A stretch of DNA of 62,557 nt, the filler included, from Bonamia ostreae (taxonomy: Eukaryota): the NCBI GenBank assembly GCA_040357525.1. It is 30 parts of 30 records of this genome, joined end to end, with 100 filler letters (N's around TTAATTAATTAA, not from the genome) between each part and the next. Parts side by side here need not be neighbours in the genome. Positions count along the whole stretch, not along the records: positions 1 to 2,000 come from JBDODL010001134.1; positions 2,101 to 4,099 come from JBDODL010001135.1; positions 4,200 to 6,198 come from JBDODL010001136.1; positions 6,299 to 8,296 come from JBDODL010001137.1; positions 8,397 to 10,393 come from JBDODL010001138.1; positions 10,494 to 12,490 come from JBDODL010001139.1; positions 12,591 to 14,587 come from JBDODL010001140.1; positions 14,688 to 16,684 come from JBDODL010001141.1; 22 more parts are not named here. One strand, written 5' to 3'. This document shows, piece after piece, positions 449 through 62,516 of the stretch; positions within the stretch are counted from its first letter, which is position 1; the number at the start of each line of letters is the position of its first letter. The notes under the pieces were generated by a model. The model ran no database searches. It was not told the origin of the DNA and was given only the letters and a program-made list of their open reading frames with translations. Both the position numbers and the translations under genes were made by a program.

Positions 449-1883
449 ATGGAAGTTAGAGCCAGCAAAGGTTCGATAAACGATTTTGCTGCGATAATAA
501 TGCCGTTTGAGGATGAAAACGGCCTTTATCCGCTTTGCACAAAAAGATCAAAATCTTTTTTGTCAATTGTAAATAAACCGATTTTGGAATATCAAATCGA
601 ATATTTGTTGAATTTCAAATTTAACCGTTCAGCTTTTTAATTAAAATCATTTTTGATAAATATTTTTATTTTCATTCATTTTAACGACAAAATCGATTTT
701 TTATTTTCATTCATTTTAACGACAAAATCGATAAAATTGTATTTTAAAATTTGTTTTGAAGAAATTGCAGTAGTCGTCAAGAAAGACGAATATAGCGCGT
801 TTGAACGCATTTGCACCAAATTTGTTGGCGACGCCAACATTATTTATTTGCCATTCGACGATTTTGAAAACATGAACACATTCGAAATTTTAAAAAAAGC
901 CGCTGAAACGTATTTTAACGTAAAATTTAACACTTAAAATTTTGATCAAAGAACAATTTTCTGGTCCTCGACGGGAATTTGTTGACCGATTTCGACGTAA
1001 ATTTGCTCTTCGAATTCCATATTTTGCGCAACTCCAAATTTACGGCTGTTTTTAATCAGCCAAAACAAGAAAACAAGATAAAAGACGGTTCAAAAACGAA
1101 CATTAAATGTTCCGAAATTATTGCTGTGCCAAAATATGAGCAAGAACACATCGTTTTTTCAAAGTTCGTCGATAAAAATGCAAAATTCGAAGGTATCGAT
1201 ATCGACAAAGATGTCATCGAAAAGTTTGAAAATTAGAAAAACTTTGAAAATTTATTAACTGCAAAAACGGCGTTTCTAATTACAAAAAGCTAAATTTTAT
1301 TTGTCTAAAAAGCTAAATTTTAAGACACGCGTCATTGTCGGTATTTTCGGCACTGAAAAATATTAATTTGTACTGCGTTTCTTCGGAATTTTTTTCGTCG
1401 GCGAAAACCGATTTAAATGGCGGGAAAATGGCCAAATCGCTTATTCCCCTTTTTCTTAATCTTGAAAATGTCGATTGCCACTTATTTAAAATAACAGATT
1501 CAGAAGTTGTCTGCAGAAATATCGAAAATCCTCAAATTTTCAAAGAAACTAATTTTGAATTCGTTTTTTGATTTGAATTTATTATTTTCTCAGCAACAAA
1601 ATTTTATTAAAATTTAGTCGAAATTGGCCCGGAATTTGAAAAAATTGCCTTGGAGTTTAAACTTAGACGATGAATATCAGAGCGAAATTACAAAATCGAA
1701 CAATTCGTCAAAAGTTTTTTTTTTAAATTTTAGTTTGGGAAAGATTGTGTTTTCGAAGAACCGATAAAAATGGGGTCGAATTGCATTTTCAAAAAATGTG
1801 TTGTTGGAGCGCATTGTTTTTTGGGCGATAGCGTAAAAATAATCAATTCTGTTATAATGGACCATGTTACGATTAAAAATAAG
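449..1883 (+). CDS. EIF2B3: Translation initiation factor eIF2B gamma subunit, 3' truncated, at least 6 exons
   Basis: Nucleotidyltransferase-like N-terminus (KSFLSIVNKPILEYQIEYL) and C-terminal left-handed beta-helix (GSNCIFKKCVVGAHCFLGDSVKIINSVIMDHVTI). GT-AG introns 627-761, 920-951, 1224-1324, 1563-1617 and 1714-1733 restore one frame. Confidence 0.8.
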
Positions 1884-2000
1884 TTTTTTTTTAATTTTTT
1901 GCAGATTTTTTTTTAATATTGATCAAATTGGAATTTGAAAAGTCGAAAAAATAAATTTAAATTCGAAAAAGAGTAGAAAATAAATTAATGTAAATTCGAA

Positions 2001-2100
2001 NNNNNNNNNNNNNNNNNNNNNNNNNNNNNNNNNNNNNNNNNNNNTTAATTAATTAANNNNNNNNNNNNNNNNNNNNNNNNNNNNNNNNNNNNNNNNNNNN
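2001..2100. other. Artificial contig spacer (44 N + TTAATTAATTAA + 44 N); first of 29 copies recurring every ~2.1 kb
   Basis: Identical 100-nt cassette with stops in all six frames; flanking contigs decrease monotonically in length. Confidence 0.99.
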
Positions 2101-2419
2101 AATCAATCTGAGGTGTGGATCACACACCTTTTCGTAACAAATGATAAGTATTTGGAAGCTATGTATAGGGAATACTAAATTTATATCCGCCCCTGTGTAG
2201 CAATTGCACTTTGAAGAACAACAACTATATTACAGCCTATAGAGTTCAGTATCAAATCCACGTCTTGAACAGTTTAAATGAATAAGCATAAATCGTCCTA
2301 CATAGCTATTCGTCAATATATTTATAACTTGCCGCCTAATAATCAACTGGCGGCTGTAAGATAAGCTAGCCTATGTCTTATATCGAATACAGGGGCAATT
2401 TTGTTTTTGTGTTGACTGC

Positions 2420-2855
2420 CCAAAATTTTAGCCATGTTTATAACTTTTAAATGGTTAGGGCTCTCATACTTCATATGCGTATTCCTTTTGACAATGCCAT
2501 TTCTTTTGTACGAAAGGTTTTTTTACTTTGTGACCTTGTCGTATGGCTAGTTTTATAAAACAATGAATTTGACAAAATATCCTGGATTAGATAAGGTAGG
2601 GAGTTCATATCTTGTCTATAGATGCCTTATGTCAGATACCATGATCATTGTCCATGTGACCTGACATTGAAATTTGACTCAAATTTCACAATCTAACATT
2701 TCCTCGTGACTTTAATGGTGTGTGACATGGCTTTCCTATTTCATATGTGCATTCTTATGATAAAGGCTCTCGTTTGGTACCAAATTGTTTGACCTCGATC
2801 TCGAAATGTTTCTTTCTTTCACCGTAGTCATAGTGTTTCACAAATACACCTTGTT
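2420..2855. repeat. Degenerate bivalve-type Helentron/satellite-like repeat (host-type DNA)
   Basis: Recurrent blocks such as ttcatatgYgYattcYt and gtgacct(t)g, ending ...gtttcacaaatacaccttgtt. Resembles oyster Cg170/HindIII-like repeats from memory; not searched. Confidence 0.5.
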
Positions 2856-6298: not shown

Positions 6299-7852
6299 AA
6301 TTCCAAAATCTAACAATCTAAAAATTCCTCAAATCTAGTAAACGATAATTGGACTTATTTCTTTGGCAAGCAAAGATCAGTTTTAATAAACTTCATTTCT
6401 TCAATACCAAATGTTCTGATATCTCTCTTTGTTCCCGGTCTAATAAAAAACTTCAAAGCAGTGACAATCCATTCAGTAAACGTTGCAGTTCAATTGATAT
6501 CTTGTTTTTGTTTCATTTTGGCTGTTTATGTTATAAAGATGCCTTTTTTCATCGCAAATGATCCCTCTTCATCGAATCTTGGCTTCGTTATAGTTGGTTG
6601 CTTTAATTGCTAATTCAAAAAAATGATTAAATTATTTTTATAAAACAGTTGTTTCATTAATGATTTCATCTGCATTTTTCGCCATTTCGCAAACGATGTT
6701 CTATGCGTTTTTAATATTATTGAAATTTAACGTTGAAAACGAACTTTAACAAAAGATATTTTGCAGAATATTCAAACCAAGCAGTTCAGATTGAAATAAC
6801 GGGAATGGCGGCACCAAATGTTCTCTTTGCTCTATATTCTTTGCTTATTAAAAACCAAATTACAAATTTTCAAAAACGGCAAATTTGCTATTTTTTGTTC
6901 CCGATCGTTCTTCATTTTGCCGCATTGTTCATATTCTTTATTCATTCTTCCCCAAAACCACAGAAAGTTATTATTCTTTATTCAAACTATTCTTTGTTAC
7001 TCGAAATTTTAACAAATGTAAAGAGAGACGCAAACGTAAATAAACCACTTCAGAAGAAATCGCTTCGAATTTTCTATAAAGCAGTTTTAAACAAAAAATG
7101 GAAACTAATCTTATTAAACGCGTGTTAATATTTAGCCAATTTATCTGTAACTAAAATAAAAATAAAAAATTGATTTAACAAACATTTTTCAAAGCACTTT
7201 ATTATTCCACGTTTTTGGTTTATCCGTCTATAATGATGAACATTAAACCTTCAAACGCTAAAATCGGTGACAACTGGGGGTTAGTGCTTCTTTTTCTGTA
7301 TGGTGTTTCAGAACTTGCTGCCCGGATCATCAACGCTGCAGATTTTGATTTTGTTAAAAAAATATTTTCAGAACGAAATGTTTTAATGTTTTTTGTTACC
7401 GCAAGAAAAATATTTTATTCAAAGATTCCAAAACTAATTGATGTTTTGAGGCAAGAACTAAATATTTTAATAAAAAGAATGGGATCGATAAGATTCTTAT
7501 TTGTTTTGATACCAATAGCAACATATATGGCTTCAGAAGGACTGTTTTATTTTCCGTCACCAGTTCTCGACGTTATTAATTGCGCTTTTTATTTATTCTA
7601 CGGATTGTCTCATGGATTACTGTTATTCAATTTTTATTACCAAATTTTTTTTAAAAAATCTAAAATTTTAATATTTCTTCTGATAAACTACTTTTTTGAT
7701 AAAATAGAGGAAATAATATTGCCGTGTATATGTGCAACGAATTGGAAGAAGTGGGTGAGATCAAAATCGCAAGTAGCTATTTTTCCTTTTCGTTGGTCTG
7801 CAGTTGCTCCTTAGGATTGTTGAGCAGCTACCTCATTATTAAAATAGTGTAA
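6299..7852 (+). CDS. Equilibrative nucleoside transporter (ENT/SLC29), 5' truncated, multi-exon
   Basis: Multiple TM segments with VYPSIM, YGVSELAAR, RFLFVLIP, YGLSHGLL. Splicing 7388-7477 and 7622-7707 gives an ENT-like C-terminus ...GEIKIASSYFSFSLVCSCSLGLLSSYLIIKIV*. Confidence 0.7.
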
Positions 7853-7860
7853 CCTTTATC

Positions 7861-12590: not shown

Positions 12591-13619
12591 CCACAAACGA
12601 ACTTTTGACGCAATTAGACGGTTTCAAAGAAAACGACAAAATCGTCGTCATCGGATCGACCAACATGTTCAAAATTTTACTTTTTAAGGCGACAAATGAT
12701 CGACAAAACTCTCCTCCGCTCTGGCCGCTTCGACCGCTCCGTCTACGTCCCCCTCCCCGAACTCAAAGCACGCAAACAAATGCTCCACCTCTACTCAGCA
12801 GGAGTCCAAACCGATGAATCCGTCGACTTTGACAGAATCGCCATCGACTGCGTCCTCAGCTCCGGAGCAGACATCGCGAACATTGTCAACACCGCCAAAA
12901 TCTCCGCCGCCAAGAACGACCGCACCGTTCTCTCCGCCAAAGACTTCGAAGCAGCCGTGCTCGACGTTTCCAACGGCGTGGAACGACAATCGCTTCAACT
13001 TGGTGCGCCGGCGCGGCGTGCGCTCGCCATCAGCGAATCCGCTTGCGCTCTCGTTTCACTGCTAACAAAGTCCTCCTCACGCGAACTGAGGCGCATTTCC
13101 ATCGTCCCGCGTGGCCTCGAGCTCAGCTCCTCGCGCAGCGTGCCTTCTAGCGAAGACGCGATGGTCTCTCAGAGCGTGGAGCAGTTGTTGGCGCGGATCG
13201 ACGCCGACATCGCGGGGCAGATCGGGCAGGAGCTGCTGCTGGGGAAAAGTCGGATCATGTCGGATTCGAAGACGCGTTGCGAGCGGGCGACCAAGTTGGC
13301 GCGTTCGATGAGCGCGGAGCTGGGGATGGGGAAGCGTCTCGGCTTTGCGGCGAGCATGTTCGCCAACGAGAACGTTGATTGGCGGACGCCATATTTGCCA
13401 GCGCAGACTCGGAGCGCGATCGATGAGGATGCGGTGGAGAGATTGAAAGAGGCGGAGGAGCGAGTCTTAAGATTGCTGAGGAGGAACAAGTCTCGTCTGC
13501 TGGCGTTGAGCGAGGAGTTGTTGGTGAGGGAGAGTTTGGGGAGGAAGGAGATTGAGAGAGTTGTTGAAGAGGTGCCCGAAGATGATTTTGAGGTGAAGAC
13601 GACAAATAAAATTGATTAA
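12591..13619 (+). CDS. FtsH/YME1-family AAA ATPase with degenerate M41 peptidase domain, 5' truncated
   Basis: NELLTQLDGF...IVVIGSTN and SRH LLRSGRFDR joined by a 22-nt intron 12667-12688; SGADIANIVN lid; ISIVPRG. HEXXH is replaced by SESAC. Confidence 0.9.
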
Positions 13620-13670
13620 AAATTTGGCTTTTTTATTTTTAGTGGTTAATTTTAAATTTAGCTTTTTTTA

Positions 13671-14144
13671 ATGTGTCTGCACATTCATTTTCGAGTTTTT
13701 GGGAAGGTTCAAAGTTTTTTGGTCAAATAGTTTCTTCAAAAGTTTGTAAAAAAATTGAATTTTTAAATTTGCAAAAAAAGGCAATTTGTAATTTTTTTAA
13801 AGAAGTGTTTTTTCGAAAATCGACTGTTGAAAAAGCGCGTTCATTGGAGATCGTCGGTTACGTTCGGAATTTGAAAGATGGATCGGTGCAAGGAGAAGCT
13901 TTCGGAAAAGAAAATGAAATTTCGATTTTGTTTTTTAAAAAATTGATTTTAAAATTTCGGAAAATGATTTTTTTAATCAATTTCAAAAAGTAAAAATTGG
14001 TTAGAAAACGAAGGTTCGCCCGATTCAAAAATTGAAAGAGTTTGTTACGAGTTTTGTCGAAAAGTTGATGGAAAGTACAAATTTGACCAATTCTATTTAA
14101 GAAAAATAAATGGCCAAGGTCAAATAAGAGATATTGTTGTGTAA
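13671..14144 (+). CDS. ACYP: Acylphosphatase, 3 exons, complete
   Basis: Spliced (13714-13802, 13930-13990): MCLHIHFRVFGKVQKVFFRKSTVEKARSLEIVGYVRNLKDGSVQGEAFG...WLENEGSPDSKIERV; catalytic Arg and Asn present. Confidence 0.9.
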
Positions 14145-14918: not shown

Positions 14919-15633
14919 CTTTTTTAAGAGCTTTGAAAATATCCCATTCGTTTCTCACAATAATCTGTTCAAGATTCTGAACGCTAATCGCGTTTTTTCC
15001 ATCATCGAAAATCCGCAAGTGCTTTTCTTCGTCGGATAATAAATCGATCAATTCTTCGTTGTAAAGTTCCAGAAAAGACACTCGAATCGAGTGCTCTATT
15101 TTCTTCGATTTTAGTTCTCCGTAAATTGATTTCACGGCACGAGGGATTATCCCGGCGTTTCTTCCAAGTAATTCATTCGCTAAATTTAAAAAAATTACAA
15201 TTTAATGCCAAATTATAATCGATTTCTCCTTCGATTGTAAATGTCTTTCCGGTGCCAGTTTGGCCGTAAGCAAAAATTGTACAGTTGAATCCTTCGATCA
15301 CTTCTCTTATTATCGGTGTCACAGTTTTTTCAAACAACTTTAAAAAATTTTTGATTTTGATAAGAAAAGAAAATTTTGATTTTGAGAAGAAAAATTGTTT
15401 TTTTTCGATTTTAAGGTGAAAACGTATTCTTGTTCTGTAAATTCGTCGTAAACGCGATCAAAATTAAATTTTTTGACAGTGGAACTAAGACTGATTCTTT
15501 TTTCAATTTGATTAATTGTAATTTCCTTTTCGTTATTTTGGAGTTTTAAGCTTTTGGACTTTAATCTTTCAAATTGCATTTCAGGTCTTATTCTTACAAC
15601 AACATTAACATTGTGTTGTATTTTGTTCTTCAT
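14919..15633 (-). CDS. KIF11: Kinesin-5 (BimC/Eg5) motor domain, 3' truncated
   Basis: [40 protein letters not shown] (P-loop), [23 protein letters not shown]; introns 15338-15423 and 15180-15198. Confidence 0.9.
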
Positions 15634-17536: not shown

Positions 17537-18757
17537 TTATAGAATATTTATTGTCTGAGAAGAAACTAAAAAATTTTCTTTGAATGTCAAAATTGTTGCA
17601 AATCGACCACTGCCACAGCAAACAACAGATTTTGCCATTTTTGATTCATTTTCAAATCTTTTTTCATCACATTCGACAAATTTGTAAATCGCATCCGCAT
17701 CTTTGCAATCATAAATTTTCATCAAATCAGTTTCTACCATTTTCCAATAATATATTTCCCCCTTTTCTGTGCCCAAAATTATCTAATTGCAAAAATTGGA
17801 ATCAAAACATTGGAATCAATGAATTTTAGAGATGTTATCAAATTTTTCAGGTAGTTTGCTTTAACCAGAACTCGAGTTTTTGTGTGATATAATTGGATTG
17901 TTGAATTTGTACTTGATATAGCGACATATTCACCATTGTTGTCTATGTCCAAAGCTAAGATTTCTGATTCAAAAGAAGGCGTGTCTGTAACTACACCACT
18001 TGCCGAATCAATTCCGAAAATGTTTTTTTTGCTTTTGGTGTCTAAAAATTTTTATATTCAACCCCAAAATTTGAGCAAGCCGTCTAAACTCCCGCTAACC
18101 AAAACCGACGAATTTTCATGAACAAAATATTTTAATTGTAAAATATAATTAAAGTGCCCTGTTAAACTGTGAATTATCCTGTTTTCGTTCAAATCGTAAA
18201 TTTTGATGGCGTTTGAACCATCTGCTATGTACATTAAATGTTCCTTTATATATTTTTGAAAATAATTGAACATTTTCGTTTAAGGCAAAATCATTTATTT
18301 CAAACGGTTGAAAAATGTCGATTGTTTTTATTGGTCTAATGGAATTTTTTTGATTTTCATTTAAAGACTTGGCCATTGCTTTTAAATCGAATATTAGCAA
18401 TGATTTATCAGTGCCACTTTTTTAGATTTATATTTTTAATAAATGTTGAAATTTGGCACAAATAATTGTTGTAACTTTAAAATGAAAAGCCATATTTAAA
18501 AACGCGAAAAGACTGTTTAACTGAGTGCTAACCGTCAAACAGCGGACAGTCTCGTTGACGGATATTTTAAGAATCCTCTGCATGGTTAAATCGTCATCAT
18601 TTTTAGATAAAGAGAAAATTTGTATTTCTGATTCCTTTCTGTCTCCTCCAAAAATCAAAAATTTCTTTTTATTCAAAGTGACAGTGCAAATACAGAAAAC
18701 GGTGTTTTGATTAGAGTAGTTTATAGCATTCAAATTTTTGTAATGAGCTTTAAACAT
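17537..18757 (-). CDS. WD40-repeat protein, THOC6-like, multi-exon
   Basis: FEINDFALNENEHLMYIADG...YDL...SLTGHFNYI...VSGSLDGLLKFWD after removing introns 18244-18271 and 18042-18062; resembles the THO complex subunit 6 block by recall. Confidence 0.6.
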
Positions 18758-20567: not shown

Positions 20568-20838
20568 ATGTTGTTCTGTCCAACATGCTCGAACATGTTG
20601 TTGTTAGAGCTTTTCAGCGAAAAGTTGAACCAATTTTAAATATGATAAAAAAGACAAAACCCCGAAAAGTTGATCCGGACTTTCTCAAAGCCGTTTTACC
20701 GTTATTTTTGCCAGACATGCGCTTATGTCTGCAAAATAGACAAACCGGTTATATTTGAAGTCCCGTTAAAGAAGAAATCGGTCGATGATGTTTTGGGCGG
20801 AAAAGATGCGTGGAAAAACGCCCAACAAGCACTTCAAG
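20568..20838 (+). CDS. POLR3K: RNA polymerase III subunit RPC11, 3' truncated
   Basis: MLFCPTCSNMLLLE...YFCQTCAY...KKSVDDVLGGKDAWKN; 30-nt intron 20624-20653. Confidence 0.92.
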
Positions 20839-37480: not shown

Positions 37481-37733
37481 TTACAATTAAAATTGTTATA
37501 AAATTTTTGACAGTCCAAAAACAAAAATTAAAATTTTTAACAATTGATTTTTACAATTATCCAAAATAACATCTTTAAGAAATTTTATGCTTTCCTTANN
37601 NNNNNNNNNNNNNNNNNNNNNNNNNNNNNNNNNNNNNNNNNNTTAATTAATTAANNNNNNNNNNNNNNNNNNNNNNNNNNNNNNNNNNNNNNNNNNNNGC
37701 GAATCAAAATTTCTGAAATAATTTAAAGCAAAT

Positions 37734-40783: not shown

Positions 40784-41772
40784 ATGTCTTTTTCAAATTG
40801 CGCAAATTTAAAAAATATAGAATCTGAGAATTTTGAAGGGTTTAAATCAGAAAATAATCATTCCATTTTAAAATTTAATAAAATTTATGTTTTTAAAGAA
40901 GCGAGAAAAAATTGGAGATCAAAACAGAGGGGACCGATCTTCGACTTATTTCCAATAAAAAATGGGAGAAAATCTTGAGGATGGCCAAATGCCAAATTCT
41001 CTCACATGTCAGCAACGATTTTGTAGAAGCGTATATTTTGAGTGAAAGTGCTTTGTTTGTTTTCCAAAACAAAGTTTGGCTTTTTTGCTAAAATCTCTAA
41101 TTTGCAATTTTTTCGCTGAAAGCAAAATTATAAAAATAAAATCTATAGATGATATTAAAGACATGCGGGACAACGCCATTATTAATTTGCATTCCGTTAA
41201 TTTTGAAAACATTTTCACTAAACAAATCCCTTTTAGTTTATGTAATTTATTCTCATTCGTCATTTTTGTTCCCACAAAACCAACCATTTCCTCACAGGTT
41301 TAAACAATTTGCAAAAATTAATTGTCCTGAAAACCAAAATTTTCTGCTAGAAACATTAAATTTTCCAAAATTGCTTTACAAAAATTTAAGAAATTTTGAG
41401 AGCGAAAGAAAATTTTTGGAAAGATTTTTTAGCGGGAAAATTTTTGTAACCGACACGAAACAAGAACCGATTTTTTATTTATATTTTGCTCAAATTCGTC
41501 CATATTTTCCCAAAAACGAACAAACAGTTGAAATGGTAATGTTTAATCTTTCGAAAAATCTGGCTTATTTTTATAAAAACAATTTATTGTTTAAAAGTGA
41601 AAGTTTTTTGTTAAATAAAATTTATTTCTGGTTAAAAAATAACTTCACTTGAAGAATTGTTTGGATTTTTGGGAGAAGCCAAAATCGATTCATATCTTTT
41701 TTCGCCCTGCGGGTATTCTGAAAACTCAATTAAGGATAATAATTATTTGACACTACACGTTACGCCCGAAAA
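40784..41772 (+). CDS. AMD1: S-adenosylmethionine decarboxylase proenzyme, 3' truncated
   Basis: FEGSEKKLEI, YILSESALFV (E-S self-cleavage site), ILKTCGTT, QPFPHRNF, FSPCGYS, LHVTPE; four GTT-donor introns. Confidence 0.95.
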
Positions 41773-42809: not shown

Positions 42810-43757
42810 ATGGGCGCAAATTTTTACATTATCGAAAGAGCCACCACTCTTTCCGCTTTTTCTGTCGTTTTCGTTTCTTTCATAATTTCCGTCGCGTACC
42901 GATTCAGTAAAGGCGGATGGCAAAACGTTTTAAGAAACGAATCCATCAAAGTATATTGTCGTTTCTTCGGAATGGCGTCATCTTTGTTTTTTCTGATCTG
43001 TCAAATTGATTATTTTTCGTTTTTCGGAATTTTTTCGCTGAAAATGGCGAGAATTCTGAGCAATTTTGCGTTTTCTGTTTTCGTTTTGATGTTTCTGGCG
43101 TGCGCAAATAAATTAATGGCGATTTATGTTGGGATTGTTTGTGATGAGCGGACAGGAAATAAAATTGGGAAATATCTTTGGCTGGATTTTGGAGTTTATT
43201 TTGTGCTTTTGGCAGTTTTCTACTTTTTTTGCAATTTTTCAAAATTGCCGTTTTTTTCTAACTTTTTTTATTCGATTTTTGTAGAAAAGTAAATTTCTAA
43301 AAAATAAATTTGGAAATTTTTTGATTCGAAAAAATAAAGATCGCATCAAATAGAATTTGGAGAGCGATTGTTAAACGGATTGTTTTTGGCGCTTTCCTTA
43401 TCCGTGATGATCTTCGTTTACATTAGAACGATAAAATTGATCAACATAAAAGTAGTGATCAAAATTTCAAATAATTGCAAAAAAGTGGAATGTAACGAAA
43501 TAATGAAAAATTTTAGAAATCTGATTTTTTTGTTAACTTTAACTCTTTTTTTCTTTTTGGCTTTGGTTATTATCAGATTTTCAGTTTTTATTTTTTGTGT
43601 TTTTAAAAATTTTAATTGAACAAATTTTTAGGTTTTTAATCCGTTTTCAAAAAATGTTTATTCGAAAGAAGACATTTTGTGGAATGAAGTTGAGGATTTT
43701 CTCGTGTTTGTGATTTGTGCTGTAGATTTGGCCGCTGTGAGCATATTTGCGTTTTAA
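42810..43757 (+). CDS. Orphan multipass (about 7 TM) membrane protein, 3 exons
   Basis: Successive hydrophobic segments over ORFs 42723-43292, 43368-43619 and a last exon ending TAA at 43757. Confidence 0.6.
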
Positions 43758-44181
43758 ATAATTCTATTTTGATATTTTTATGTAATTTTTTTTGTCCAAA
43801 TGGATTTAATCAAAATCCTCCGCTATTTCATTTTTTAACCTCTTTTCATAGTTGATTTNNNNNNNNNNNNNNNNNNNNNNNNNNNNNNNNNNNNNNNNNN
43901 NNTTAATTAATTAANNNNNNNNNNNNNNNNNNNNNNNNNNNNNNNNNNNNNNNNNNNNTTTTGTTTTCGTTTTTGTTGTAATTTGAATATTTTTGTTTTC
44001 AATTTTTGTTAAATTTTGAATAATTTTGTTTTCGTTTTTGTTGTAATTTGAATATTTTTTTTAAATTTTGAATATTTTTGTTTTCGTTTTTGTTTTAAAT
44101 ATTAAACAATCATCGCTTTTAATCAAAATAAACCATTTGAAACAACAATAAACAATCAATTTGATTAAACGTAATAATTAA

Positions 44182-45925
<1,744 letters not shown>

Positions 45926-48125: not shown

Positions 48126-50108
48126 TTTTTCGACGACGCAATTAGAATTTTGGTCTAAAACCATTTTTCCGAGGTCCAGCCAAAATCTCCAAACGACGCC
48201 AGGGCCGTGTTGCTTTTCGCTCAAGTGCTTATTTCGACCATTGTTTGTGCTGGGGATGACGAGAACTCTATTCAAATATTGTTTCAAGTATCGTTTTGCT
48301 GATTCTGTGATGTCTTCGACTTCTTCGTTTTCTTTGAAAACGGCGGCTTTTTTTAGGGTGAAGAAATATTTTCCGATTTGTTCCAAATTTTGTGTGTTTG
48401 GGGAATCCAAAGTCTTTTTTTCTGTCTTTGTGGAGACTAGTTTCAAAATGGAATGCAGTTCTGAGAAGCTTTGGACCAATTGGGAGATCAATTTAGAGGA
48501 TTTTTTTTCAGTTTTGAAGACTTTTTTCAGTATAAGCGCCTATTTTTTGATTAACTCAAACCAATTTTGCAAAATTGTTTTAATTTAATAAATTTTCTTT
48601 TGTAAATTTTTTATTGAAAGTTTCTTTTGCGAATTATTAGCGAAAATTGTTTTTCAAAATTATTAATAAAATTTTTCTTTTGTAAATTTTTGTTAAAATT
48701 GTTTTTCAAATTAGTAATATTTAGCGAAATAAAGACCACTTGTTCGGATAAATTTGCAATTCTTCCATTTGAAAGCGTTTTGTCAAAAGGGCAATAATAA
48801 AAGCCCCTCGCAATTCTATTCAATAATTGTACCCCTCTCAGTTTCGAACCCCTTTTTGCTCTAGAAACGTACCAAGCCAATGCATCATAAAGTCTCAAGA
48901 GATTTTCATCGATTTTTATCAAATCGCTACGGGTCGGAATCAAGGTGTTGAACATCCAGAAAGCCAATTCGATGTTCATGCCTTTTATGATTTTAAGTAA
49001 ACAATTGATTGCTTTCGAGTCGTCTATGCGCAGGTCGACGGGGTGGACTTTGAAAATGTACCCCCAATAATTGTTGTCGGCCGTGCTTCTGAAATGGTAG
49101 TAGCATTTGTTAGATTGCACAACAAATGATGAATAATTCTTCATTTTTGAATTCGTTAAATTCAAAATCGATATTAATGTGAACAAAAAGTTTTAAATGT
49201 CTGATTTTAGAATGACGGGACGATTTTATTTAGAAGTAAAGTTTGATAAAGAAAATAACATTTTTAATGGCAAAATAATATTAAAGAAAAATTAAAGTTT
49301 TTAATGACCAAAATTAACTTTTTTAATAAAGAAATAACATTTTTAATGACAATTAACATTTTCGATAAATATACACAAAATTTAAAAATTAACCCTGTTG
49401 ACGTACCCGTCTTTACCACCTCTGTTGCTAGACAACAACTGAGTCCTTTCCTCGTCAGCGTAGAACTTAAGAAAAGTCATCAAGTCACTGCTCAAACTGC
49501 ATCGCGAATCAAAAGTGATGTAAAGAGCCCGAGCTCCCGGAATGTGCAACTTCCCCTTTTTGTCTGCAAAGGCTTTGTACGGACAGCTCCCCGGCGAGCT
49601 TACTGAGATGGTCGGAATTGGATTGTTCGCCGCTTGAATAAAGTGCACAACGCATTCTTCCGAGATCAGTCTTCGCATCGTCAAACTGTCGTTTTCGCCA
49701 TTTTCACAGTACAAAACGCTGTTCGCCGCCAGAGCCAAATTTTCTTCGTCGTTGAAAATCTCTTTTGTGATTATTGGCGTCGATTTGGTTTCCGACGAAG
49801 CCTCGTTTTCGAAAATCTGCAGCAATTTTAGTCTAGTTTTTTCTAAAGCCGTTCTGGACTTTATATCAGATTGCGCGGAAACAGTCGATTTTTCTTTCGA
49901 TGACAGAGATTCTGCGCTGAGCAGTTTTAAGAGGCGAAGAAATTGTCTTTTTCCGCCAAATCGCTCGATTTGGAGATTTTTGTGATCGGGCCATTTTTCC
50001 AATTGTTTCAACATTGTTCTTCGAGTCTTTATTCATTGTTACCGATTAATTTCTACAAAGCACTTTATTTCATATTTGACGTTTTTTGGGGATTTTATTG
50101 TTACTGAT
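48126..50108 (-). CDS. Internal exons of a large protein with a CUB-like domain of the kind found in giant E3 ligases
   Basis: PY...GKLHIPGARALYITFDSRC...LKFY and YYHFRS...WGYIFKVHP; three long co-linear ORFs. Confidence 0.55.
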
Positions 50109-50208: not shown

Positions 50209-51530
50209 GGCGATTCAAACACCTTCGATTTTAAGATATTCAAAATAACATTTTTACAAAAAACATTTTTCACTTTAAAAGTGGCATTAGATAAACTAAA
50301 AAACAAAGGTGGCAACAGCGCCTTAAAAATTTTTTGATCCCAACAAAAAAGATCGGAAAAATTTCTCGCCGCGATCGATGCTTTGTAGCGAACTTGGCTC
50401 CAGTTATCTCTCAGTCCAACATAAATCACGCCATTTTTCAACCCCAAAAACCCTAAAATTTCTGAAAATTCGGGCGAAGCATTTTGATCGTCGACAAAAC
50501 AAGAGCTGCAAACAGCAGAAACAAGATTCAAAACGGATTCTCTTACGAAACGATTTGAATGGCGCACTCCAATTTCGAAAACAACTTTGTAATCGATTTG
50601 TTGCGACTTGAGCTCGTTCAAAATGTTTTTCCGAGTAAAACATTTTGGGAAAAGTGCGCTTAAGAGATTTAAGTTTGTTTCAATAATTGATACGGATTTT
50701 TTGTTCTGTTTTTAAAATAATGTAACGTCGATTGCGTTTGCATCGAAGTTTTTTCTGATCAAATTTTTTTCTATTTGTTCGGAGATTTGTCTATAAAATT
50801 TTTTAGTTTAATTTTTAATATTTCTGTCTTTTGAAAATTTTCTTTTTCGAATATTTGTTTTTGGCAATTTTGGATTTTATCTGTTTAAAGACAAATTTTA
50901 ATTATTTTTGGCAATTTTGGATTTTATCTGTTTAAAGACGAATTTTAATTATTTTTGGTAATTTTTATCGGTTTAAAGACGAAATTTGAAAAATTTGAAA
51001 AATAAATTTTTTGACAATTTAAATAAATTTGAAAAATAAAAATATTGATTTTATAATTTAGAAATATAAACGGTTTCAAAATATTAAATGTCATTAATCT
51101 GTAATGTTTCGCATGTTTTTTGATGTATTTCAAAGTGCTCGATCTATTTAGAATTTTGTAAACAGTATTTAAAACTTAATATTGTTATTGTAACAATTTA
51201 AAATGGAGCATTTCAACATATTTCTATCAAAATCAATGTCTTTATTTGCAATTGCCTATTTAATAGAAAATTTGCATTTTAATTGAGATTTAGCTTTTTT
51301 GTATAAAAAACAGATGCCAAATTTAGAGAAATAAAAATGTCGTTATTTTTAGTTGTTTTAGATTTTTCAAATATAAATGATTTGATATAATCAAAGAAAT
51401 CGGACTTTTGGATATTATTAGATGTTTTTAATAAATTTTTTAGATTTTTTAATTTCTTTTTGATTTCTTGTCTGTTCAAACCGTCTGCATTAAAATATAG
51501 CTTTTTGATTAAAGCAGGAAGATCTGACAT
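50209..51530 (-). CDS. HEAT-repeat protein, 3' truncated, multi-exon
   Basis: GVRHSNRFVRES and GLRDNWSQVRYKASIA HEAT motifs; probable first exon MSDLPALIKK at 51530 (linkage inferred). Confidence 0.6.
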
Positions 51531-51814: not shown

Positions 51815-52190
51815 ATGTACATAAAAGAAATAGTTTTGGATGGTTTTAAATCTTATGCGAATCGAACTGTTATTAGTGGCTTCGATCAAAATTTTAATGC
51901 CATCACTGGTCTCAATGGCAGTGGAAAATCAAACATTTTAGATTCCATTTGTTTTGTTTTGGGCATTTCTCAACTTCAAAATGTTTAAAATTCATTTTAT
52001 TTTACAACTTTTAATTTTTTAAATTTTTTTAATTTTATTAAAAAAATCGGACTTAATTTTAATATTCTTTTAAATTTTATTATCAAAAATCGAACTAAGT
52101 TTTAATATTTTCTAGTTTTTGGCAAAATTTTTGTGAAATTTAAAAGGTTCGTGTAAACAATCTACAAGAACTAGTCTATAAACAAGGACA
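51815..52190 (+). CDS. SMC2: Condensin subunit SMC2, first two exons
   Basis: [51 protein letters not shown]..[intron 51983-52146][14 protein letters not shown]; absent from the ORF track. Confidence 0.97.
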
Positions 52191-52479: not shown

Positions 52480-54249
52480 ATGGCTTTACACTCAAATCAC
52501 AAAATACTCACTCTCATTGCCAAAATAGCAATCCCGTTATCCGGCCTTTTCGGAATTTTATTTGCTGGTTTCTTTAAGCTCTTTCCTATTTTATCACTAA
52601 CTTTAAAATCGCAAGCTTCAAAAATTCCTAATTTGTAACTTTCAAAGCGTTTTCTTTCCTCGTCCTCCGCAAAGTGCGCATTTCCAAAAAAGGCGACTCT
52701 TTTTCGCCTCTTTCCGACAGCGACGGCGACGACGTCGAGTCGATTCCGAGCACCGAATATTTCAAGATCCAAGCGATCTACTCCAAAATCCAACAAGGCG
52801 CCTACTCCTTCATCCGGACGGAGTACATCCACTTCACTCCTTTCTTCCTCGTCTTCGCCGCGCTCCTCGTCTTCCTGATCGGCTCCACGAACGGGTTTCC
52901 TTCCAATAAATTCAGATATCTGTTCGCCTGCCTCTCGGGGATCTGCTTCATCCTCGGAGCGAGCACCTCGCTCATCTGCGGGGCGGTGGGGATGGCGATC
53001 GCCACCTACGGGAACGCGCGCACGACGATCAGCGCGCAGAGCAGTCTGGAGGCGGCCTTCCAAACCTCGTTCACCACGGCGCAGATCTTCGGGTTCCTGC
53101 TGCCCTCCGTCGGGCTCGTCAGCTTGTTCGCTTGTCTGGAGGCGGTGCGGGCCATCGTGGGGAACTACGAGACGGCCTGCCGCATCCTCGTCACCTACGC
53201 GCTCGGGGCCTCGGTGATGGGGCTGGGCTGCCGGATCTGCGGCGGAGTGTACACGAAGGCGTCGGACGTCGGGGCGGACCTGGTGGGGAAAACAGAGAAG
53301 AACCTGAAGGAGGACGACCCGCGAAACCCGGCGGTGATCGCTGACAACGTGGGCGACAACGTGGGCGACATCGCGGGGATGGGCGCCGACTTGTTCGGGT
53401 CCTTCGCGGAGGCGACGTGCGCCGCTCTGATCATCGTCTCGCGTTCGAAGACGTTGGGCAAGTTGGAGTTCTCGATCCTGCTGCCGCTGATGCTGATCGC
53501 GACCGCCGTCTTTGTGGCGATGGCGACTACCTTCGTCGCCACCAAACTTTGGAGGCCCAAAGTCGACAGTTTTTAATCCTAAAAAACGAAAAGGCGACGT
53601 CGAATGGTCCTTGAAGCTCCAAGTGCTCATCTTCTGCGTCTTCATGATCATCGCCGCGTTCCCCATCTGCATGGTCTTCCTCCCCTCCGAGTTCAACGTG
53701 GCCAAGGACGGAGCAGTCGAAAACATCTCCACCAACGTGAAGGCCTTCTACTGCGTCGCCATCGGGATCGCGGGAGGAGCGCTCGTCGGTTTGATCACCG
53801 AGTACTACACGAGCCACTCGTTCCGCCCGGTCCGCTCTCTCTCCGAGTCGGCCGAGACCGGCCCGGCCACTGTGATCATCACCGGGATCGCTCTCGGGTA
53901 CCAATCAGTGCTGCTGCCCATGTTCGTGCTGGGCATCATCATGTACATCGCGTTCAACTTTGGGGAGTACTTTGGGATCGTGATGATGGGGCAGGGGATG
54001 CTGTGCTGCGTGTTCACCTTCTTGTTGATCGACGCGATGGGGCCGGTGTGCGACAACGCGGGCGGGATCGCGGAGATGGCTGGGTTGGGCGAGGCGGTGC
54101 GCGATCGGACGGATGTTCTGGACGCGGCCGGGAACACGACTGCGGCGATCGGGAAAGGGTACGGTATTTCGCTAGCGTCGGTGGTCGGGATCGCGCTTCT
54201 GATCAGTTATAACCGGTTGAAGGATATCCAGAACGTGAACGTGTTCAAC
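52480..54249 (+). CDS. Membrane H+-translocating pyrophosphatase (V-PPase, K+-dependent type), 3' truncated
   Basis: GGVYTKASDVGADLVGK, EDDPRNPAVIADNVGDNVGD, TEYYT, DNAGGIAEM, LDAAGNTTAAIGKG; introns 52568-52647 and 53569-53593. Confidence 0.97.
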
Positions 54250-55055
54250 GTTTTTTTTAATTGTTNNNNNNNNNNNNNNNNNNNNNNNNNNNNNNNNNNN
54301 NNNNNNNNNTTAATTAATTAANNNNNNNNNNNNNNNNNNNNNNNNNNNNNNNNNNNNNNNNNNNNACATTAGTAGGTTACATAGCCAGAAACAGGATAAA
54401 GCAAATATCAGTGTATCACACGGAATGTCGCAGTCTGAGGGGGGGGGGGAGAAAATAATAAAATTACAGGAGGTTAAGGATTTAAACTATCATACCCATT
54501 CGGGGGAATTGATGCATGTGGTGAGAGGCCCCTCGTGGCGAAGGAAGATTGTAAAAATACCCAAAAGACATTAAACAGTGTAAAGGTCAATGTCAATAGT
54601 GTAAAGGAATTTCACTGTTTATTCACAAATGTAGATTCTTAAACATCACCTCCAGCTGGTGACGTTTCAATATCAGTAAGAATTCTCGATGAAACGTAAA
54701 ACAAACAAATAACCGAAGAAATATATGTATTTTGATGTGTAAAACATACAACAAAATATTCAAAAAAAGTAAATTGCTGTGGCAATAAGGTATACTACAA
54801 AACATAACTGAGACCCCATCCATGATTGTTTGTTGGATCAAAATACCTTCAACTAGTATTGAACTCCACTAACATAACCTAAGAATTATAAACACATATT
54901 TTTAGGGTTGTCAAACTTACTGAAATAGCATTGAATATTTAGGACCTGCAATACATAAAACGAAACTAAAATCTCCATGAAGTCTAATTTTAGAAGCATT
55001 CCGAGAACCAACACCTGTAAATAGCACGACATCTAAGGTAAACAGCATACGAAAT

Positions 55056-56496: not shown

Positions 56497-57929
56497 CTGA
56501 GTCCACCAAAATTTGGTTAAGCGCGCTAGCTCGACTTTTAGAACGAACGAAAATAATAGCTTGATTGAAATCAAGCTGGTCGAAAAGGGAACAAAGTTTC
56601 TTTGTTTTCTCTTTTTCGTCAATGTGTTTGTAGTACTGGACAAGACCGTGCAACGTCAACGCCGCGTCGTTGTCAACAAATATTTCATGTGGCTGAATTT
56701 TTATAGTTTAATAAATTTTCAGTTTGAAATTTTTATTTTTTTCGCAATTTGGTAAAAACCTCTCGCGCAAATTTCTTGCAGACTTTTCTGACATCATCTT
56801 TGATAGTCGCTGAAAACATGAGCACTTGCTTTTCTCTCGGCGTTCGCTTGAAGATTTGTTGAACTGTGTATCGCATGTCGAGGGATTCAAGCATTTTGTC
56901 GCATTCGTCTAAAATGAATCTTTTCAGATTTGACAGATCCAGCGCTTGTCGTTCAACCAACGAAAGAACTCTTCCAGGAGTCCCGATGACAATCTGAGGG
57001 CGATCTTTGCTCAATTGTTCGATGTTCTTTATTTCCGGAATTCCTCCGAAAACTGCCATTTCCTAAAAAATTTTATCAAACTTTTTTCGTTTTTTGGCCA
57101 AATTTAATTTTTATCAATTTTTTAATAATTTTTACCAAATTTTGGATTATTTTTTCCGTTTTTATTCAAATTTTTAATTTTTCGATCAATTTTTTTTAAT
57201 TTTTAATTTTCGATGAATTTTTTTAATTTTTCGATCAATTTTTTTAATTTTTAATTTTCGATCAATTTTTTTAATTTTTAATAATTTTTTCAATTTTGAC
57301 CAAATTTTTAATTTTTTGATAAATTTTTCTGTTTTATTCAAATTTCTAATCAATTTTGACCAAATTTTTAATTTTTTGATTAATTTTTTCAATTTTATAA
57401 ATTTTTATCAAATTTAGTTTTTCGATTTAATTTCAATTTGAATCGGAAACTTTGACGGAAGGCAAATATTTTGAGAGACGGTTAAATTCCTGGCAGATTT
57501 GGAATGCGAGTTCTCGGCAATGACAAAGAACGAGCGTGTCGAGTTCTTTCGCGTTGGGATCGATTTGCTGCAAAACGGACAAGACGAAAACAGCCGTTTT
57601 GCCCATCCCCGATTTGGCCTGGCAAATCAAGTCTGTCCCGAAAGCTGAAACGGGGATGCATTCTTGTTGCACCTCTGAGGGGTGCTCGAAGCCACAGTCG
57701 CCGATGGCTCTCAGCAATTCCGGTTTCAAAAGAAAATCACGGAAGCCTGCTGCTTGTTTTCCTGCGTAGGAGCCCCTTTGAAGGTTTGGAAAAGCAACTT
57801 TGTTTGGATTTGGTTGTTGACCTCCTGTACTTCTTCAACGGGCTCTTCGTAATCTTCAAGAGGCTCTTTGTCGATATCGTAAGCGTTCTCGTTTGTGACT
57901 CCATTACTGGTTGCTTTCTTTCTAGGCAT
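56497..57929 (-). CDS. DDX39B: DECD-box RNA helicase UAP56/Sub2, 3' truncated
   Basis: [53 protein letters not shown]; introns 57776-57798, 57063-57450, 56693-56759. Confidence 0.97.
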
Positions 57930-58175
57930 GAGCTAAATCGAAATTAGTTAAATTTTAGACTTTTTGAAAATATTATGTGTAAAGTTGTTATGAGTAATTT
58001 GATATTTTTCGGTTTGATTTAGTGTTTTTATGTCCAAATTTAAAATGTGTTTTTTCGAGTTTTAGCTTTTAGAGTTTTAATGTGGTTTTGATTTTTTATC
58101 AATAAAACGAAAAATAGTTTGAATTTTGGTTCATTAAAAATTCGATAAGTGATTTTTGGAAAAATTTTAATGTCT

Positions 58176-58361: not shown

Positions 58362-58513
58362 CTTTTATTAATTAATGCAAATTTTACAAAAACTGCAAAT
58401 TTTACAATAACTGNNNNNNNNNNNNNNNNNNNNNNNNNNNNNNNNNNNNNNNNNNNNTTAATTAATTAANNNNNNNNNNNNNNNNNNNNNNNNNNNNNNN
58501 NNNNNNNNNNNNN

Positions 58514-60485: not shown

Positions 60486-60892
60486 NNNNNNNNNNNNNNN
60501 NNNNNNNNNNNNNNNNNNNNNNNNNNNNNTTAATTAATTAANNNNNNNNNNNNNNNNNNNNNNNNNNNNNNNNNNNNNNNNNNNNTTTCACCCTAATCAG
60601 TACATTTTATATTACTCTTTTCTGTACAATTCTTTGATTAATGTTGTTTAGAACAGAATGTGATTGTTAAAAATCCCATTAAAGCATTTAAAAAGATTGT
60701 TCCTGGCAATGGTCCTACAACTAATGAAATTTTCATTGGATAGCGATTAAAAATCGTTAAACTAATAATTTGGGTTATCATTTGGATCAAAAATCGTTAA
60801 AAATCGTTAAAATCAGTTAAATAATCATCGAAGATGATTTGGAGAATTTTGAACAAATCTAATTAAAATTGGTAATCGATTTATTGATTTAA

Positions 60893-61732
60893 CTACGCAC
60901 TGTGTAAAGAAATCCATAAACGATAAGATAAACCACCAAGAAATCCACTGGTTACGAGACTGCCAGCAAACAAAGAAACTGTACCCATTTGAATAAATGA
61001 CACTGTGTGTAATTGACCAAGATAATCCATTCTTTTGATGCAAGTGACAACATAATCTGGTTTTCCGTCTTTGCAATAAACAGCAGTTGCTGAAATTGCG
61101 GCTGCCGTGTTATTTACGAATGAGTCGTCTCCACAAGCCACAACAAAAGGACCTTTACCTATTACAGCTTTTTGGCCTGACGGCATCGTGAATACGTTTT
61201 CAGTTGGTCCTAGCAGTGTAGCATCCTTGGGAATCTTATAAAGACACATTTCTTTCGTAAAATCGGCTACAATAGTGGGGTAATCGTAATCGCACACGCC
61301 ATTTGAATCAACGTATGCATTCAATTTTATTCCTTTTCCTTTCGAACCTTCCGAGCACGCTTTTATTATAGTTGTTACAAAGTTAAGTCACAAACAAACA
61401 ATGTTTCTATAACAATTTTTATTGCGATTTTTTAAAATTCGTTAAAACAAATTGTTCCTTTGTTAAAAACAGTTTATAGTAGTCATATCCCAGTTGCCAT
61501 TTTCGTGACAATTAAAATACCCTGATTTGAAAAGCGATCCAATAGCTTGGATTACTAAAAAATCCTTGACCGCAGTCAATTGATATCTTCCTGGACTATA
61601 GGTTTTATCGTGTATAACTGGTTGAGTCGCAGATTTTCTGACTTCAATGCCATCTTGCGGCTTTGGGCCATTTTTTGAACAAGCTTGCGAGATAAAAATT
61701 AAATAAGAGAGAATAACGAAATTGAAGTTCAT
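60893..61732 (-). CDS. Predicted secreted/surface protein with Cys-bounded repeats and hydrophobic C-terminus, 2 exons
   Basis: Signal peptide MNFNFVILSYLIFISQA; intron 61360-61470 joins the two ORFs in frame; ends ...SLFAGSLVTSGFLGGLSYRLWISLHSA*. Confidence 0.65.
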
Positions 61733-61901
61733 TTTCGGTTTGTTGTAGATTGTGTGTTTTTTATAAAAAATTGTAATAAATTTTTTTGCAACCCGATTTT
61801 CATTAATAAATATACCACAGAATTTGTTTTTAACATGTTCAGATTTTGACCATATTTCGTAGTCTAAAAACAATAATTTAGCTTTGTAACTAAAAACGGG
61901 A

Positions 61902-62516
61902 ATGCAGCGATTTTTGGAAATAACAGTTTGTGGCGAAGACGGTGGCAATAGCGATTTTTATAAATTATCAGAAGAAACGTCCGTCCTGAAATTAAAGCAG
62001 AACGTTGAGTTAAAAGTAATTTTTGTGTCTTTTGCCAAAAATTTTTTGTAACAATAAACATTTTGAAGACCGGAATAAAAGTAAAAAATCTAAAATACAA
62101 AGGCAAAAAATTGCCATTTAACAAAAATTCCAAATTGTCTTCTTTAAAAATGGAAGCTAGTGATGTTATAATCGCAGATTTTGATATGACGATAACGAAA
62201 AAACTCATTGAAGACAGTGTGCCGAAGGAATACTTTTTTGAACCAGAAAAATTTAAAAATTTTGTTAAAGGAAATCCGACATTGATGTCACATCTCATAA
62301 AAGTAAATATTCCGTTTATAACAGGAAAACAGTGTGTTGGCTGAAGCAGTGATGTCAGACGACCACGAGTTTCTAAGAGACGCTCTTTCTGAATATTCGG
62401 TTAAAATAAGACAAAACTATATTCTCGAGAAAAACAAAAATAACCAAAAAGCGATTGAGAGCACAATTCAACAGAACAATATTCGAGAAAACATGGAGAG
62501 CGCATTAGAACATGCG
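61902..62516 (+). CDS. DDI1: DNA damage-inducible protein DDI1 (UBL plus helical domain), 3' truncated
   Basis: Ubiquitin-like N-terminus, PEKFKNFVKGNPTLMSHLIKENSVLAEAV, and IQQNNIRENMESALEHA preceding the retropepsin domain; introns 62016-62068 and 62303-62324. Confidence 0.8.

Follow-up and report, generated by a model that had tools for sequence, protein, structure and literature searches.

To our knowledge, introns carry a purine at +3 and a pyrimidine at -3 in nearly all studied eukaryotes, and lineages that break these rules are natural experiments that reveal which U1, U6, and U2AF contacts are dispensable and whether small nuclear RNAs (snRNAs) co-evolve with their targets. The clear case so far of a +3U donor with a compensating U1 is Entamoeba, where donors read GUUUGU in 87.9-89.5% and GUUUGN in 96.9-98.5% of introns, U is also preferred at +7, and the U1 recognition sequence is AACAAAC, with ACAAAC replacing ACUUAC (Roy & Bowser, 10.1101/2022.06.08.495308; for this and the other cited reports, our statements refer to the accessible parts of the text). 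Mastigamoeba is given there as a second case of a compensatory U1, and donors with +3U/+4U are argued to favor U6 in Entamoeba; the U6 ACAGA box is described as a partner of +2 to +6 (10.1101/2022.06.08.495308). Lineages with GUAUGU donors (Saccharomycotina, Giardia, and Trichomonas) retain a canonical U1 according to the same text, and altered cis signals alone therefore do not prove altered snRNAs. In the mikrocytids Mikrocytos and Paramikrocytos, introns are 16-17 nucleotides (nt) long with conserved sequence, and U2, U4, and U6 are the only snRNAs that the accessible text reports as found; tiny introns of 18-21 nt in chlorarachniophyte nucleomorphs and of 15-16 nt in heterotrich ciliates are cited in the same paper (PMC10245619). 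An early loss of splicing genes has been inferred in Ascetosporea, and the introns of paramyxids and Bonamia are described there, in the text accessible to us, just as 'canonical' (PMC11069148). Here we analyze the splice sites in a 62,557-base stretch of DNA (the window) from the Bonamia ostreae assembly GCA_040357525.1, and we find that GTT..AAAG/TTAG is a real, selected splice-site consensus of the protist in it. We found no description of haplosporidian or paramyxid splice motifs in the literature searched; the supplements of PMC11069148 and PMC10245619 may hold splice logos, and it is possible that the pattern has already been published for Bonamia ostreae.

The window appears to be a pseudomolecule of 30 contigs in order of size, the longest of 2000 and the shortest of 1972 bases, with N44, a 12-base linker with stops in all frames, and N44 again between them at intervals of about 2.1 kb (e.g. 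at 2001-2100, 12491-12590, and 54266-54365); genes are cut at each linker, and adjacent contigs are unrelated. Observed/expected (o/e) CpG ratios together with A4/T4 runs separate 19 protist contigs (37,765 bases, CpG o/e 1.07-2.22, many runs) from 11 others (CpG o/e 0.41-0.94, few runs). The original prediction had placed a divergent splice-site code across 449-62516, and this span stands for the 19 protist contigs and not for the 11 that belong to another organism. Introns were predicted by an agnostic gene finder, a dynamic programming scheme that scored codon usage, in which every GT..AG of 15-700 nt could serve as an intron for the same fixed penalty and splice sites had no further influence. 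Its output for the 19 protist contigs was 43 introns (31 GTT, 8 GTA, 4 GTC, and no GTG), so that even this set exceeds the background for GTT (p=1e-3). Hand curation from three-frame displays then rejected 12 of the 43 and brought in 11 overlooked ones, mostly very short or in GC-rich genes, to give the 42 introns analyzed below; a motif-assisted run of the finder served as a guide only and was kept out of the statistics. The 12 removed introns, 9 of which began with GTT, were wrong or unverifiable: three lay antisense to the H+-pyrophosphatase gene, three were mis-joins in the AMPK gene, two were in the tail of the WD40 contig, one was a false 5' extension of RPAC1, two were false 5' extensions of UAP56, and one was a false acceptor downstream of the genuine donor at 56496. 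The curated introns are 19-606 nt long, 14 of them 19-32 nt. All 42 have a lower G+C content than their flanks (0.195 vs 0.369), even where the exons reach about 60% G+C.

The donors begin with GTT in 33 introns, GTA in 7, GTC in 2, and GTG in none, much as the original prediction had it (about three quarters GTT, a minority of GTA or GTC, no GTG). The share of T at +3, +4, +5, and +6 is 79, 55, 50, and 60%, respectively (23/42 at +4 and 25/42 at +6), and GTTTTT is the commonest of 24 distinct donor hexamers (14/42). G is found at +5 in only 3 of 42 introns, as rarely as predicted, and at the last exon position (-1) in 7 of 42, both at or under background frequency. To set these counts against composition, we note that, among the 3111 GT dinucleotides of the protist contigs, 47.8% have T as the next base, as do 44.7% of the 103 that lie inside introns, and that intron interiors are 43.2% A and 37.6% T. 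The binomial probability of 33 GTT donors is p=4e-5 against all GT, 8e-6 against intron-internal GT, and 7e-8 against interior T content; the original prediction had itself named a +3T frequency no higher than local composition as the outcome that would speak against it, and what we find is 33/42 vs 47.8%. A at +3 (17%) is close to the GTA background of 15.5%, and G at +3 is absent (0/42 vs 14.6%, chance about 0.001). Because the interiors contain more A than T, yet +3A stays at background and +3G does not occur, the +3U is preferred and is not a by-product of composition. The usual purine preference at +3 is missing, and there is a positive preference for U.

At the acceptor, the last four bases are AAAG in 19 introns, TTAG in 12, TAAG in 4, GAAG in 3, TCAG in 2, and ACAG in 2. 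The prediction that many introns end in AAAG or TTAG is borne out by their excess over background: AAAG makes up 45% vs 22.3% (p=8e-4) and TTAG 29% vs 8.4% (p=1e-4), and ATAG is absent (0/42). Position -3 is A in 26 introns, T in 12, C in 4, and G in none (background 20.6% G); the preference for A at this position is weaker (62% vs a background of 42.5%, p=0.009). A polypyrimidine tract in the usual sense is absent, as pyrimidines reach 52% at -20 to -5 vs 47% in the rest of the intron, and the acceptor-side T maximum, at -7 to -5, is just 50-57%. The idea that A runs stand in place of this tract is thus right about the missing tract, but short T runs are often found directly 5' of the terminal AAAG or TAG. 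YTNAY is present in 32/42 introns at 6-78 nt from the 3' end, without a preferred distance, and such motifs are expected by chance in AT-rich sequence. Measured against CAG|GTAAGT, the donors match at a median of 4/9 positions including the two fixed GT positions (2-4/9 in 31/42 introns), which, together with a +3G that never occurs, a +3A at background, and a -3A that is the most frequent base, sustains the divergent code proposed at the outset. The consensus is GUU followed by U-rich +4 to +6, with AAAG or UUAG at the 3' end, and it lacks the -1G, the +5G, and the polypyrimidine tract. The GTT/AAG observation is confirmed as real and above chance.

Removal of such introns from RNA is seen on the contig that carries a UAP56/Sub2-like DEAD-box gene on the minus strand. 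A public run (X1), taken to be RNA only as a guess from its label, contains one third of the sampled words of 51000-60400, and contigs assembled from it over 56440-58413 cover the predicted exons of this gene, with the 388-nt intron at depth zero. Two joints, 56692->56760 and 57061->57450, have GT..AG ends on the minus strand and are the same introns that had been predicted beforehand; since they coincide exactly, the run behaves as RNA. The joint at 57061->57450 (CT..AC on the plus strand) removes intron 2 (57063..57450, 388 nt, GTTTCC..TTTTAG), across which the DEAD profile runs from 71 to 78 with 7 residues between, a continuity within one residue. The joint at 56692->56760, with 179 letters on its shorter side, removes intron 3 (56693..56759, 67 nt, GTTTTT..TTCAG). 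Furthermore, five RNA contigs depart from the genome at 56496, and the letters beyond this point prolong the reading frame; these loose ends fit the GTTGTT donor of intron 4, the remainder of which is off the contig (56440..56496). A further RNA contig matches 58223-58361 and then continues with 178 letters unlike the genome, which reads ..AAAAG on the minus strand with the AG at 58363-58362, and this supports one AAG-type acceptor (58362..58413, ..ATAAAAG). The exon that follows it (58361->58179, minus strand) closes a small membrane-protein-like gene directly upstream of UAP56, and the RNA contig continues into an exon that lies off the contig. RNA from this one contig therefore gives two GTT introns exactly, as well as one GTT donor and one AAAAG acceptor, and all three RNA-supported donors are GTT. 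The RNA cover is zero at 57826-58221, which includes UAP56 exon 1 and adjoins the 23-nt intron 1 (57776..57798, GTTGCT..CAAAG), and is uninformative there either way; this intron restores the frame after ..QIQTK, and the join presumably agrees with human UAP56.

Homology fixes several other junctions. In the kinesin gene (minus strand), intron 1 (15338..15423, 86 nt, GTTTTC..TAAAG) shows exact continuity: exon 1 has 70 residues, the 69th of which is at profile position 56, and exon 2 starts from 58. Kinesin intron 2 (15180..15198, 19 nt, GTAATT..TTTAG) takes the profile from 95 to 98 with a loop insertion, and its GT is the sole one available. In RPAC1, also on the minus strand, exon 3 ends at residue 207 of 7aoc_C and residue 2 of exon 4 aligns to 209, a continuity repeated in 4c2m_C and 7a6h_C, so that intron 3 (38201..38528, 328 nt, GTAGCT..AAAAAG, filled with tandem repeats) is fixed to the residue. 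Given the exact continuity at kinesin intron 1 and RPAC1 intron 3, non-GTT donors and AAG acceptors are both real. The 25-nt intron 2 of the H+-pyrophosphatase gene (53569..53593, plus strand, GTTTTT..AAAAG) is placed within two residues, as the H_PPase profile passes from 257 to 275 with 15 residues between, and it uses the sole AG available. This intron is one of four that the original prediction had listed by position, together with those at 57776-57798, 13930-13990, and 51983-52146; all four lie at these coordinates and restore the frame.

These GT-AG introns are removed from RNA and are therefore spliceosomal in kind. The two RNA joints establish major-class GT..AG ends together with removal, and GT-AG was assumed for the other 40. 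The donors are not U1-complementary (-1G in 7/42, a +3 purine in 7/42, all A, and +5G in 3/42), nor are the acceptors of the YAG type (a pyrimidine at -3 in 16/42, A in 26/42). U12-type (minor) introns carry an extended donor motif and a conserved branch site, and a GTATCC start was found in 0/42 donors, so that this class was rejected. We also rejected nonconventional introns of the euglenid type: the ends are GT-AG, and the mean pairing run between an intron's own ends (4.58) does not exceed that between ends of different introns (4.78) or in a reversed control (4.91).

Entamoeba, whose acceptor is reported to be UAG, is the closest precedent. The two codes share a U in place of the purine at +3 and a bias to U at +4 (here 33/42 and 23/42), short AT-rich introns, a donor unable to pair with canonical U1, and acceptors that are mostly not CAG. 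In contrast to the strict motif with +5G in Entamoeba, +5G is found in 3/42 introns here, only GTT is frequent, and GTTTGT does not occur (0/42, with one GTTTGA); AAG acceptors dominate (26/42), and the lineage appears to be a different one, its best named protist match being Plasmodiophora. The code here is a looser one, without +5G and with AAG acceptors in addition. In the lineages with GUAUGU donors, the preferred donor also departs from U1 complementarity, but only +4 is changed, +3A and +5G are kept, and the genomes are intron-poor with strict motifs, whereas this protist has a changed +3 and a lost +5G and is rich in introns, with 42 in about 38 kb. The tiny introns of nucleomorphs and heterotrichs have GTA-type donors and, like 14 of the 42 introns here (19-32 nt), are near the lower size limit; their size range is narrow, whereas here tiny and long introns share the same GTT/WWAG signals. 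The mikrocytids, as far as they are described in the accessible text, are, like this protist, parasites of marine invertebrates whose genomes are AT-rich and whose introns can be very short, and there are signs that the mikrocytid spliceosome is reduced. Mikrocytid introns are uniform and conserved at 16-17 nt, unlike the diverse sequences of 19-606 nt found here.

What we observe directly are the cis signals, a frequency of these signals beyond what composition predicts, and the removal from RNA at the covered sites; how the signals are read has to be argued from them. By precedent, the altered U1/U6 or relaxed U1/U2AF recognition put forward in the original prediction seems reasonable. The donor AA|GUUUUU pairs with canonical U1 only at -2, +1, +2, and +6, and because this is little beyond the GU itself, donor choice is probably not made through canonical U1 pairing. 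We tentatively regard relaxed recognition as the best explanation, with all of its trans-acting parts deduced from the introns. The donor would be fixed mainly later in assembly, by U6, whose ACAGA box could pair with GUUUUU at 4 of the 5 positions +2 to +6 (the +3U as a G-U wobble) and would form 3-4 of 5 pairs with 29/42 of the donors observed. U-rich-binding helper proteins might assist donor choice, the short AT-rich intron body might be recognized as a unit (intron definition), and the 3' end might be read as an AG after AA or UU, without a pyrimidine tract being read in the manner of U2AF65. We favor relaxed recognition because U reaches just 50-60% at +4 to +6 and nine of the 42 donors start with GUA or GUC. 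If instead U1 were compensatory as in Entamoeba, its A-rich 5' end would pair with GUUU(U), and recognition would be U1-driven and otherwise ordinary. We consider this unlikely, albeit a serious contender, given that Entamoeba GUUUGU with its ACAAAC U1 and the second case in Mastigamoeba are precedents (10.1101/2022.06.08.495308) and that the T bias at +3 to +6 and the 14 GTTTTT donors would be expected if donors were selected to pair with a run of A. Entamoeba, however, has a far stricter consensus; here +4 to +6 hold little information, and PDB continuity pins one of the nine GTA or GTC donors to the residue. An ordinary spliceosome tolerant of poor donors, with canonical U1, U2AF, and SF1 and with weak splice-site selection in a fast-evolving AT-rich genome, is in our estimate improbable. 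It could be reconciled with the canonical U1 of the GUAUGU lineages (10.1101/2022.06.08.495308), with a position -3 that is largely 'anything but G' (A at 62% vs 42.5%, p=0.009 only), and with fast evolution (an AMPK branch of 1.85 vs a median of 0.22), and the U-rich tracts after the donor may in that case recruit U1 via TIA-1/Nam8-like proteins. By composition, however, A should be no rarer than T at +3, whereas T is seen in 79% and A in 17%; the strongest U1 contacts, G at -1 and +5, are at or under background; and the specific enrichment of AAAG and TTAG in the absence of ATAG (0/42), next to A-rich interiors, speaks against pure drift.

A further concern is that the pattern arises from the way in which the introns were found, since in AT-rich DNA GTT outnumbers every other GTN and AAG every other NAG, and a frame-restoring choice could mimic it. 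The backgrounds are indeed high (GTT 47.8% of GTN, AAG 42.5% of NAG), and 12 of the 43 agnostic introns were wrong or unverifiable, 9 of these 12 with GTT. The rates nevertheless lie above these backgrounds (GTT p=4e-5, AAAG p=8e-4, TTAG p=1e-4), 3/3 RNA-supported donors are GTT, two junctions have residue-exact Pfam/PDB continuity, and 42/42 introns are more AT-rich than their flanks. An artefact is thus already largely refuted, and we give it hardly any credence. It is important to point out what weighs against relaxed recognition and against the intron set on which it is built. The trans-acting side is entirely what we infer, and a scan of the window, as opposed to the whole genome, found no snRNA with Rfam at gathering scores or at E<=1; at the latter threshold it returned three MIR1120/MIR5070-like matches, which lie on a host-like contig, and a single weak snoRNA-like match. 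The pairing with U6 loses the C:G pair at +5, so that the case for U6 exceeds the one for U1 only moderately, and for the comparable donor of Entamoeba the explanation given in the accessible part of the report is a changed U1 and not relaxed recognition (10.1101/2022.06.08.495308). No branch-point motif was found among the 42 introns, in which no 5-mer is clearly enriched. The sample is small, 42 introns from 38 kb, and all were sought as GT-AG, which makes other intron types invisible. The RNA support comes from the single contig at 56440-58413 and includes no intron of 19-32 nt. Two introns have RNA joints (one of them also Pfam continuity), and for five the tools by themselves show continuity in Pfam or PDB; 22 of the 42 depend on how we read conserved motifs, and 13 were placed only because they restore the frame.

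It is conceivable, if rather doubtful, that the protist represents a second +3U/+4U lineage, independent of Archamoebae, in which U1 co-evolved toward an A-rich 5' end or its pairing was abandoned, with hundreds to thousands of introns kept; it might then also be the first lineage with a preferred -3A, which would imply a changed reading of the 3' site by U2AF35 or step-2 factors. If true, such a second case, looser and found in an unrelated parasite that is uncultured and intron-rich, would tell whether compensation or relaxation is usual. In annotation, the genes of this organism will be mis-modeled by programs that were trained on GTRAG/YAG or whose lower limit for intron length exceeds about 20 nt; among the introns analyzed, one third fall at 19-32 nt.

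The remaining introns were placed as follows. In RPAC1 (minus strand), intron 1 (38951..39000, 50 nt, GTCCAT..TTTAG) and intron 2 (38789..38811, 23 nt, GTTAAA..TTTAG) were placed by frame restoration, the former with a spacing that we take to agree with yeast RPAC1, and intron 4 (37862..37917, 56 nt, GTACTT..AAAAAG), placed likewise, is the sole GT/AG pair that avoids a stop, followed by an exon 5 that weakly resembles RPAC1 310-342. The H+-pyrophosphatase gene (plus strand) has a frame-restoring intron 1 (52568..52647, 80 nt, GTTTCT..CAAAG) and, at the contig end, the GTTTTT donor of intron 3 (54250..54265), where the frame ends ..NVNVFN at profile position 471/645. The intron of an FtsH-like AAA protease (12667..12688, plus strand, 22 nt, GTTCAA..TTAAG) separates exon 1, with AAA 86-109, from exon 2, with AAA_lid_3 and Peptidase_M41, at a spacing that is presumably exact against FtsH. 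The acylphosphatase gene (plus strand) has two frame-restoring introns, 13714..13802 (89 nt, GTTTTT..TAAAG) and 13930..13990 (61 nt, GTTTTT..AAAAG), around an exon 2 that spans profile positions 13-50; the downstream exon has no match. On the same strand, frame restoration places an SMC2-like intron (51983..52146, 164 nt, GTTTAA..AAAAG) after an exon 1 matching SMC_N 1-53, and an intron of the S-adenosylmethionine decarboxylase gene (41603..41654, 52 nt, GTTTTT..TGAAG) between exons that both match SAM_decarbox. The SNF1/AMPK intron (45193..45526, plus strand, 334 nt, GTTTTT..TAAAG) lies between the Pkinase and AdenylateSensor exons, and the kinase exon is preceded by an intron 3' end (..TTAAAG, 43959..44183, plus strand) whose donor is off the contig, with the kinase profile starting from 64/263 at exon residue 1. 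In the WD40 gene (minus strand), introns 1 (18417..18503, 87 nt, GTTTTT..AAAAG), 2 (18244..18271, 28 nt, GTTCAA..TAAAG), and 4 (17783..17808, 26 nt, GTTTTG..ATTAG) restore the frame, and intron 3 (18042..18062, 21 nt, GTTGAA..TTTAG) follows an exon that ends at WD40 position 38/39 (..KFW), with a split codon for D.

Exon by exon, Pfam gave little that was usable for most exons of the eIF2B-like and XAP5-like genes and of the genes at 25188-26124 and 62150-62555, and their junctions therefore rest on frame restoration and motif reading. The eIF2B-gamma/epsilon-like gene (plus strand) has NTP_transferase 13-45 in exon 1 and five introns: 627..761 (135 nt, GTTCAG..TGAAG), 920..951 (32 nt, GTAAAA..CAAAG), 1224..1324 (101 nt, GTTTGA..TTAAG), 1563..1617 (55 nt, GTTTTT..TTTAG), and 1714..1733 (20 nt, GTTTTT..TTTAG), the last leading into a LbH_EIF2B/Hexapep exon. 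The three XAP5-like introns (plus strand) are 26457..26478 (22 nt, GTTTAG..TTTAG), 26609..26657 (49 nt, GTTTTG..TTCAG), and 26859..26899 (41 nt, GTTTTT..TTTAG), after which the XAP5 profile begins. Frame restoration alone places, on the plus strand, introns in an RPC11/RPB9-like gene (20624..20653, 30 nt, GTTGAA..AAAAG) and a membrane-protein gene (7124..7194, 71 nt, GTTAAT..CAAAG), as well as those at 31936..32139 (204 nt, GTTTTT..TTTAG), 32482..32500 (19 nt, GTCAAC..TTAAG), 43584..43631 (48 nt, GTTTTT..TTTAG), 62303..62324 (22 nt, GTAAAT..AACAG), and 43289..43339 (51 nt, GTAAAT..TAAAG), the donor of which is ambiguous, as the motif-assisted run chose 43250. On the minus strand, introns placed in the same way are 25594..25930 (337 nt, GTTTTG..ATAAG), 37479..37570 (92 nt, GTTATT..TAAAG), 50706..51311 (606 nt, GTTTTT..AACAG), and 61360..61470 (111 nt, GTTTTT..AAAAG), along with two weak ones, 48347..48849 (503 nt, GTTCGA..AAAAG) and 49086..49406 (321 nt, GTACGT..AGAAG, acceptor 49086 or 49089).

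The SNF1/AMPK exon of the protist has no close relative among the protein matches listed other than itself, and its best named protist match is Plasmodiophora brassicae (58%). In a tree of 32 matches hand-picked from 120 listed, the AMPK kinase (44185-45192) has a branch about eight times the median, and its placement was not resolved. Because this branch is very long, the organism evolves fast, and its proteome is, to judge from such comparisons, a very fast-evolving one. Pfam significance was barely reached exon by exon for the eIF2B-like, XAP5-like, and RPAC1 genes. Ten contigs are from a second organism (2101-6198, 8397-12490, 20978-25063, 27256-31336, 33525-35511, and 54366-56339). On one of them, an open reading frame similar to heat shock 70 kDa protein 12B (HSP70-12B-like) at 54981-55358 has named relatives only in bivalves: the Saccostrea and Mytilus heat shock 70 kDa protein 12B-like proteins and a Dreissena protein, with a top identity of 65% in a protein similarity search. 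These contigs are probably host DNA that was co-assembled with the parasite, and we infer a bivalve-associated, fast-evolving, possibly rhizarian parasite. An integrase core domain is encoded at 20978-21535 on a second-organism contig. On a host-like contig, sub-threshold Rfam matches to MIR1120/MIR5070 at 22105-22221 lie on both strands (33-35 bits, gathering 86-100) and are the signature of an inverted repeat similar to a miniature inverted-repeat transposable element, not evidence of a microRNA. The contig at 58514-60485 (G+C 22%, CpG o/e 0.50) carries a single uninterrupted frame of 656 codons that encodes a reverse transcriptase (RVT_1 domain, E=2e-39) and is a retroelement.

The CpG excess in the protist contigs (o/e 1.07-2.22) is unusual for an AT-rich genome, and TCGA/ATCGA-like words are repeated in the non-coding DNA. 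A few genes, namely the FtsH-like protease (12591-13619), the H+-pyrophosphatase (52291-54265), and in part AMPK (44185-45192), have exons of 54-60% G+C and AT-rich introns, compared with about 30% G+C in the protist genome; these GC-rich exons may reflect strong codon bias in some genes or a foreign origin. Tandem repeats of roughly 25-60 bases fill long introns or flanks at 38201-38528 and 57063-57450 (both on the minus strand) and at 43959-44100, and in RPAC1 intron 3 the recurring unit is ...aaaacgacaaaatttgtaaaatttatt...

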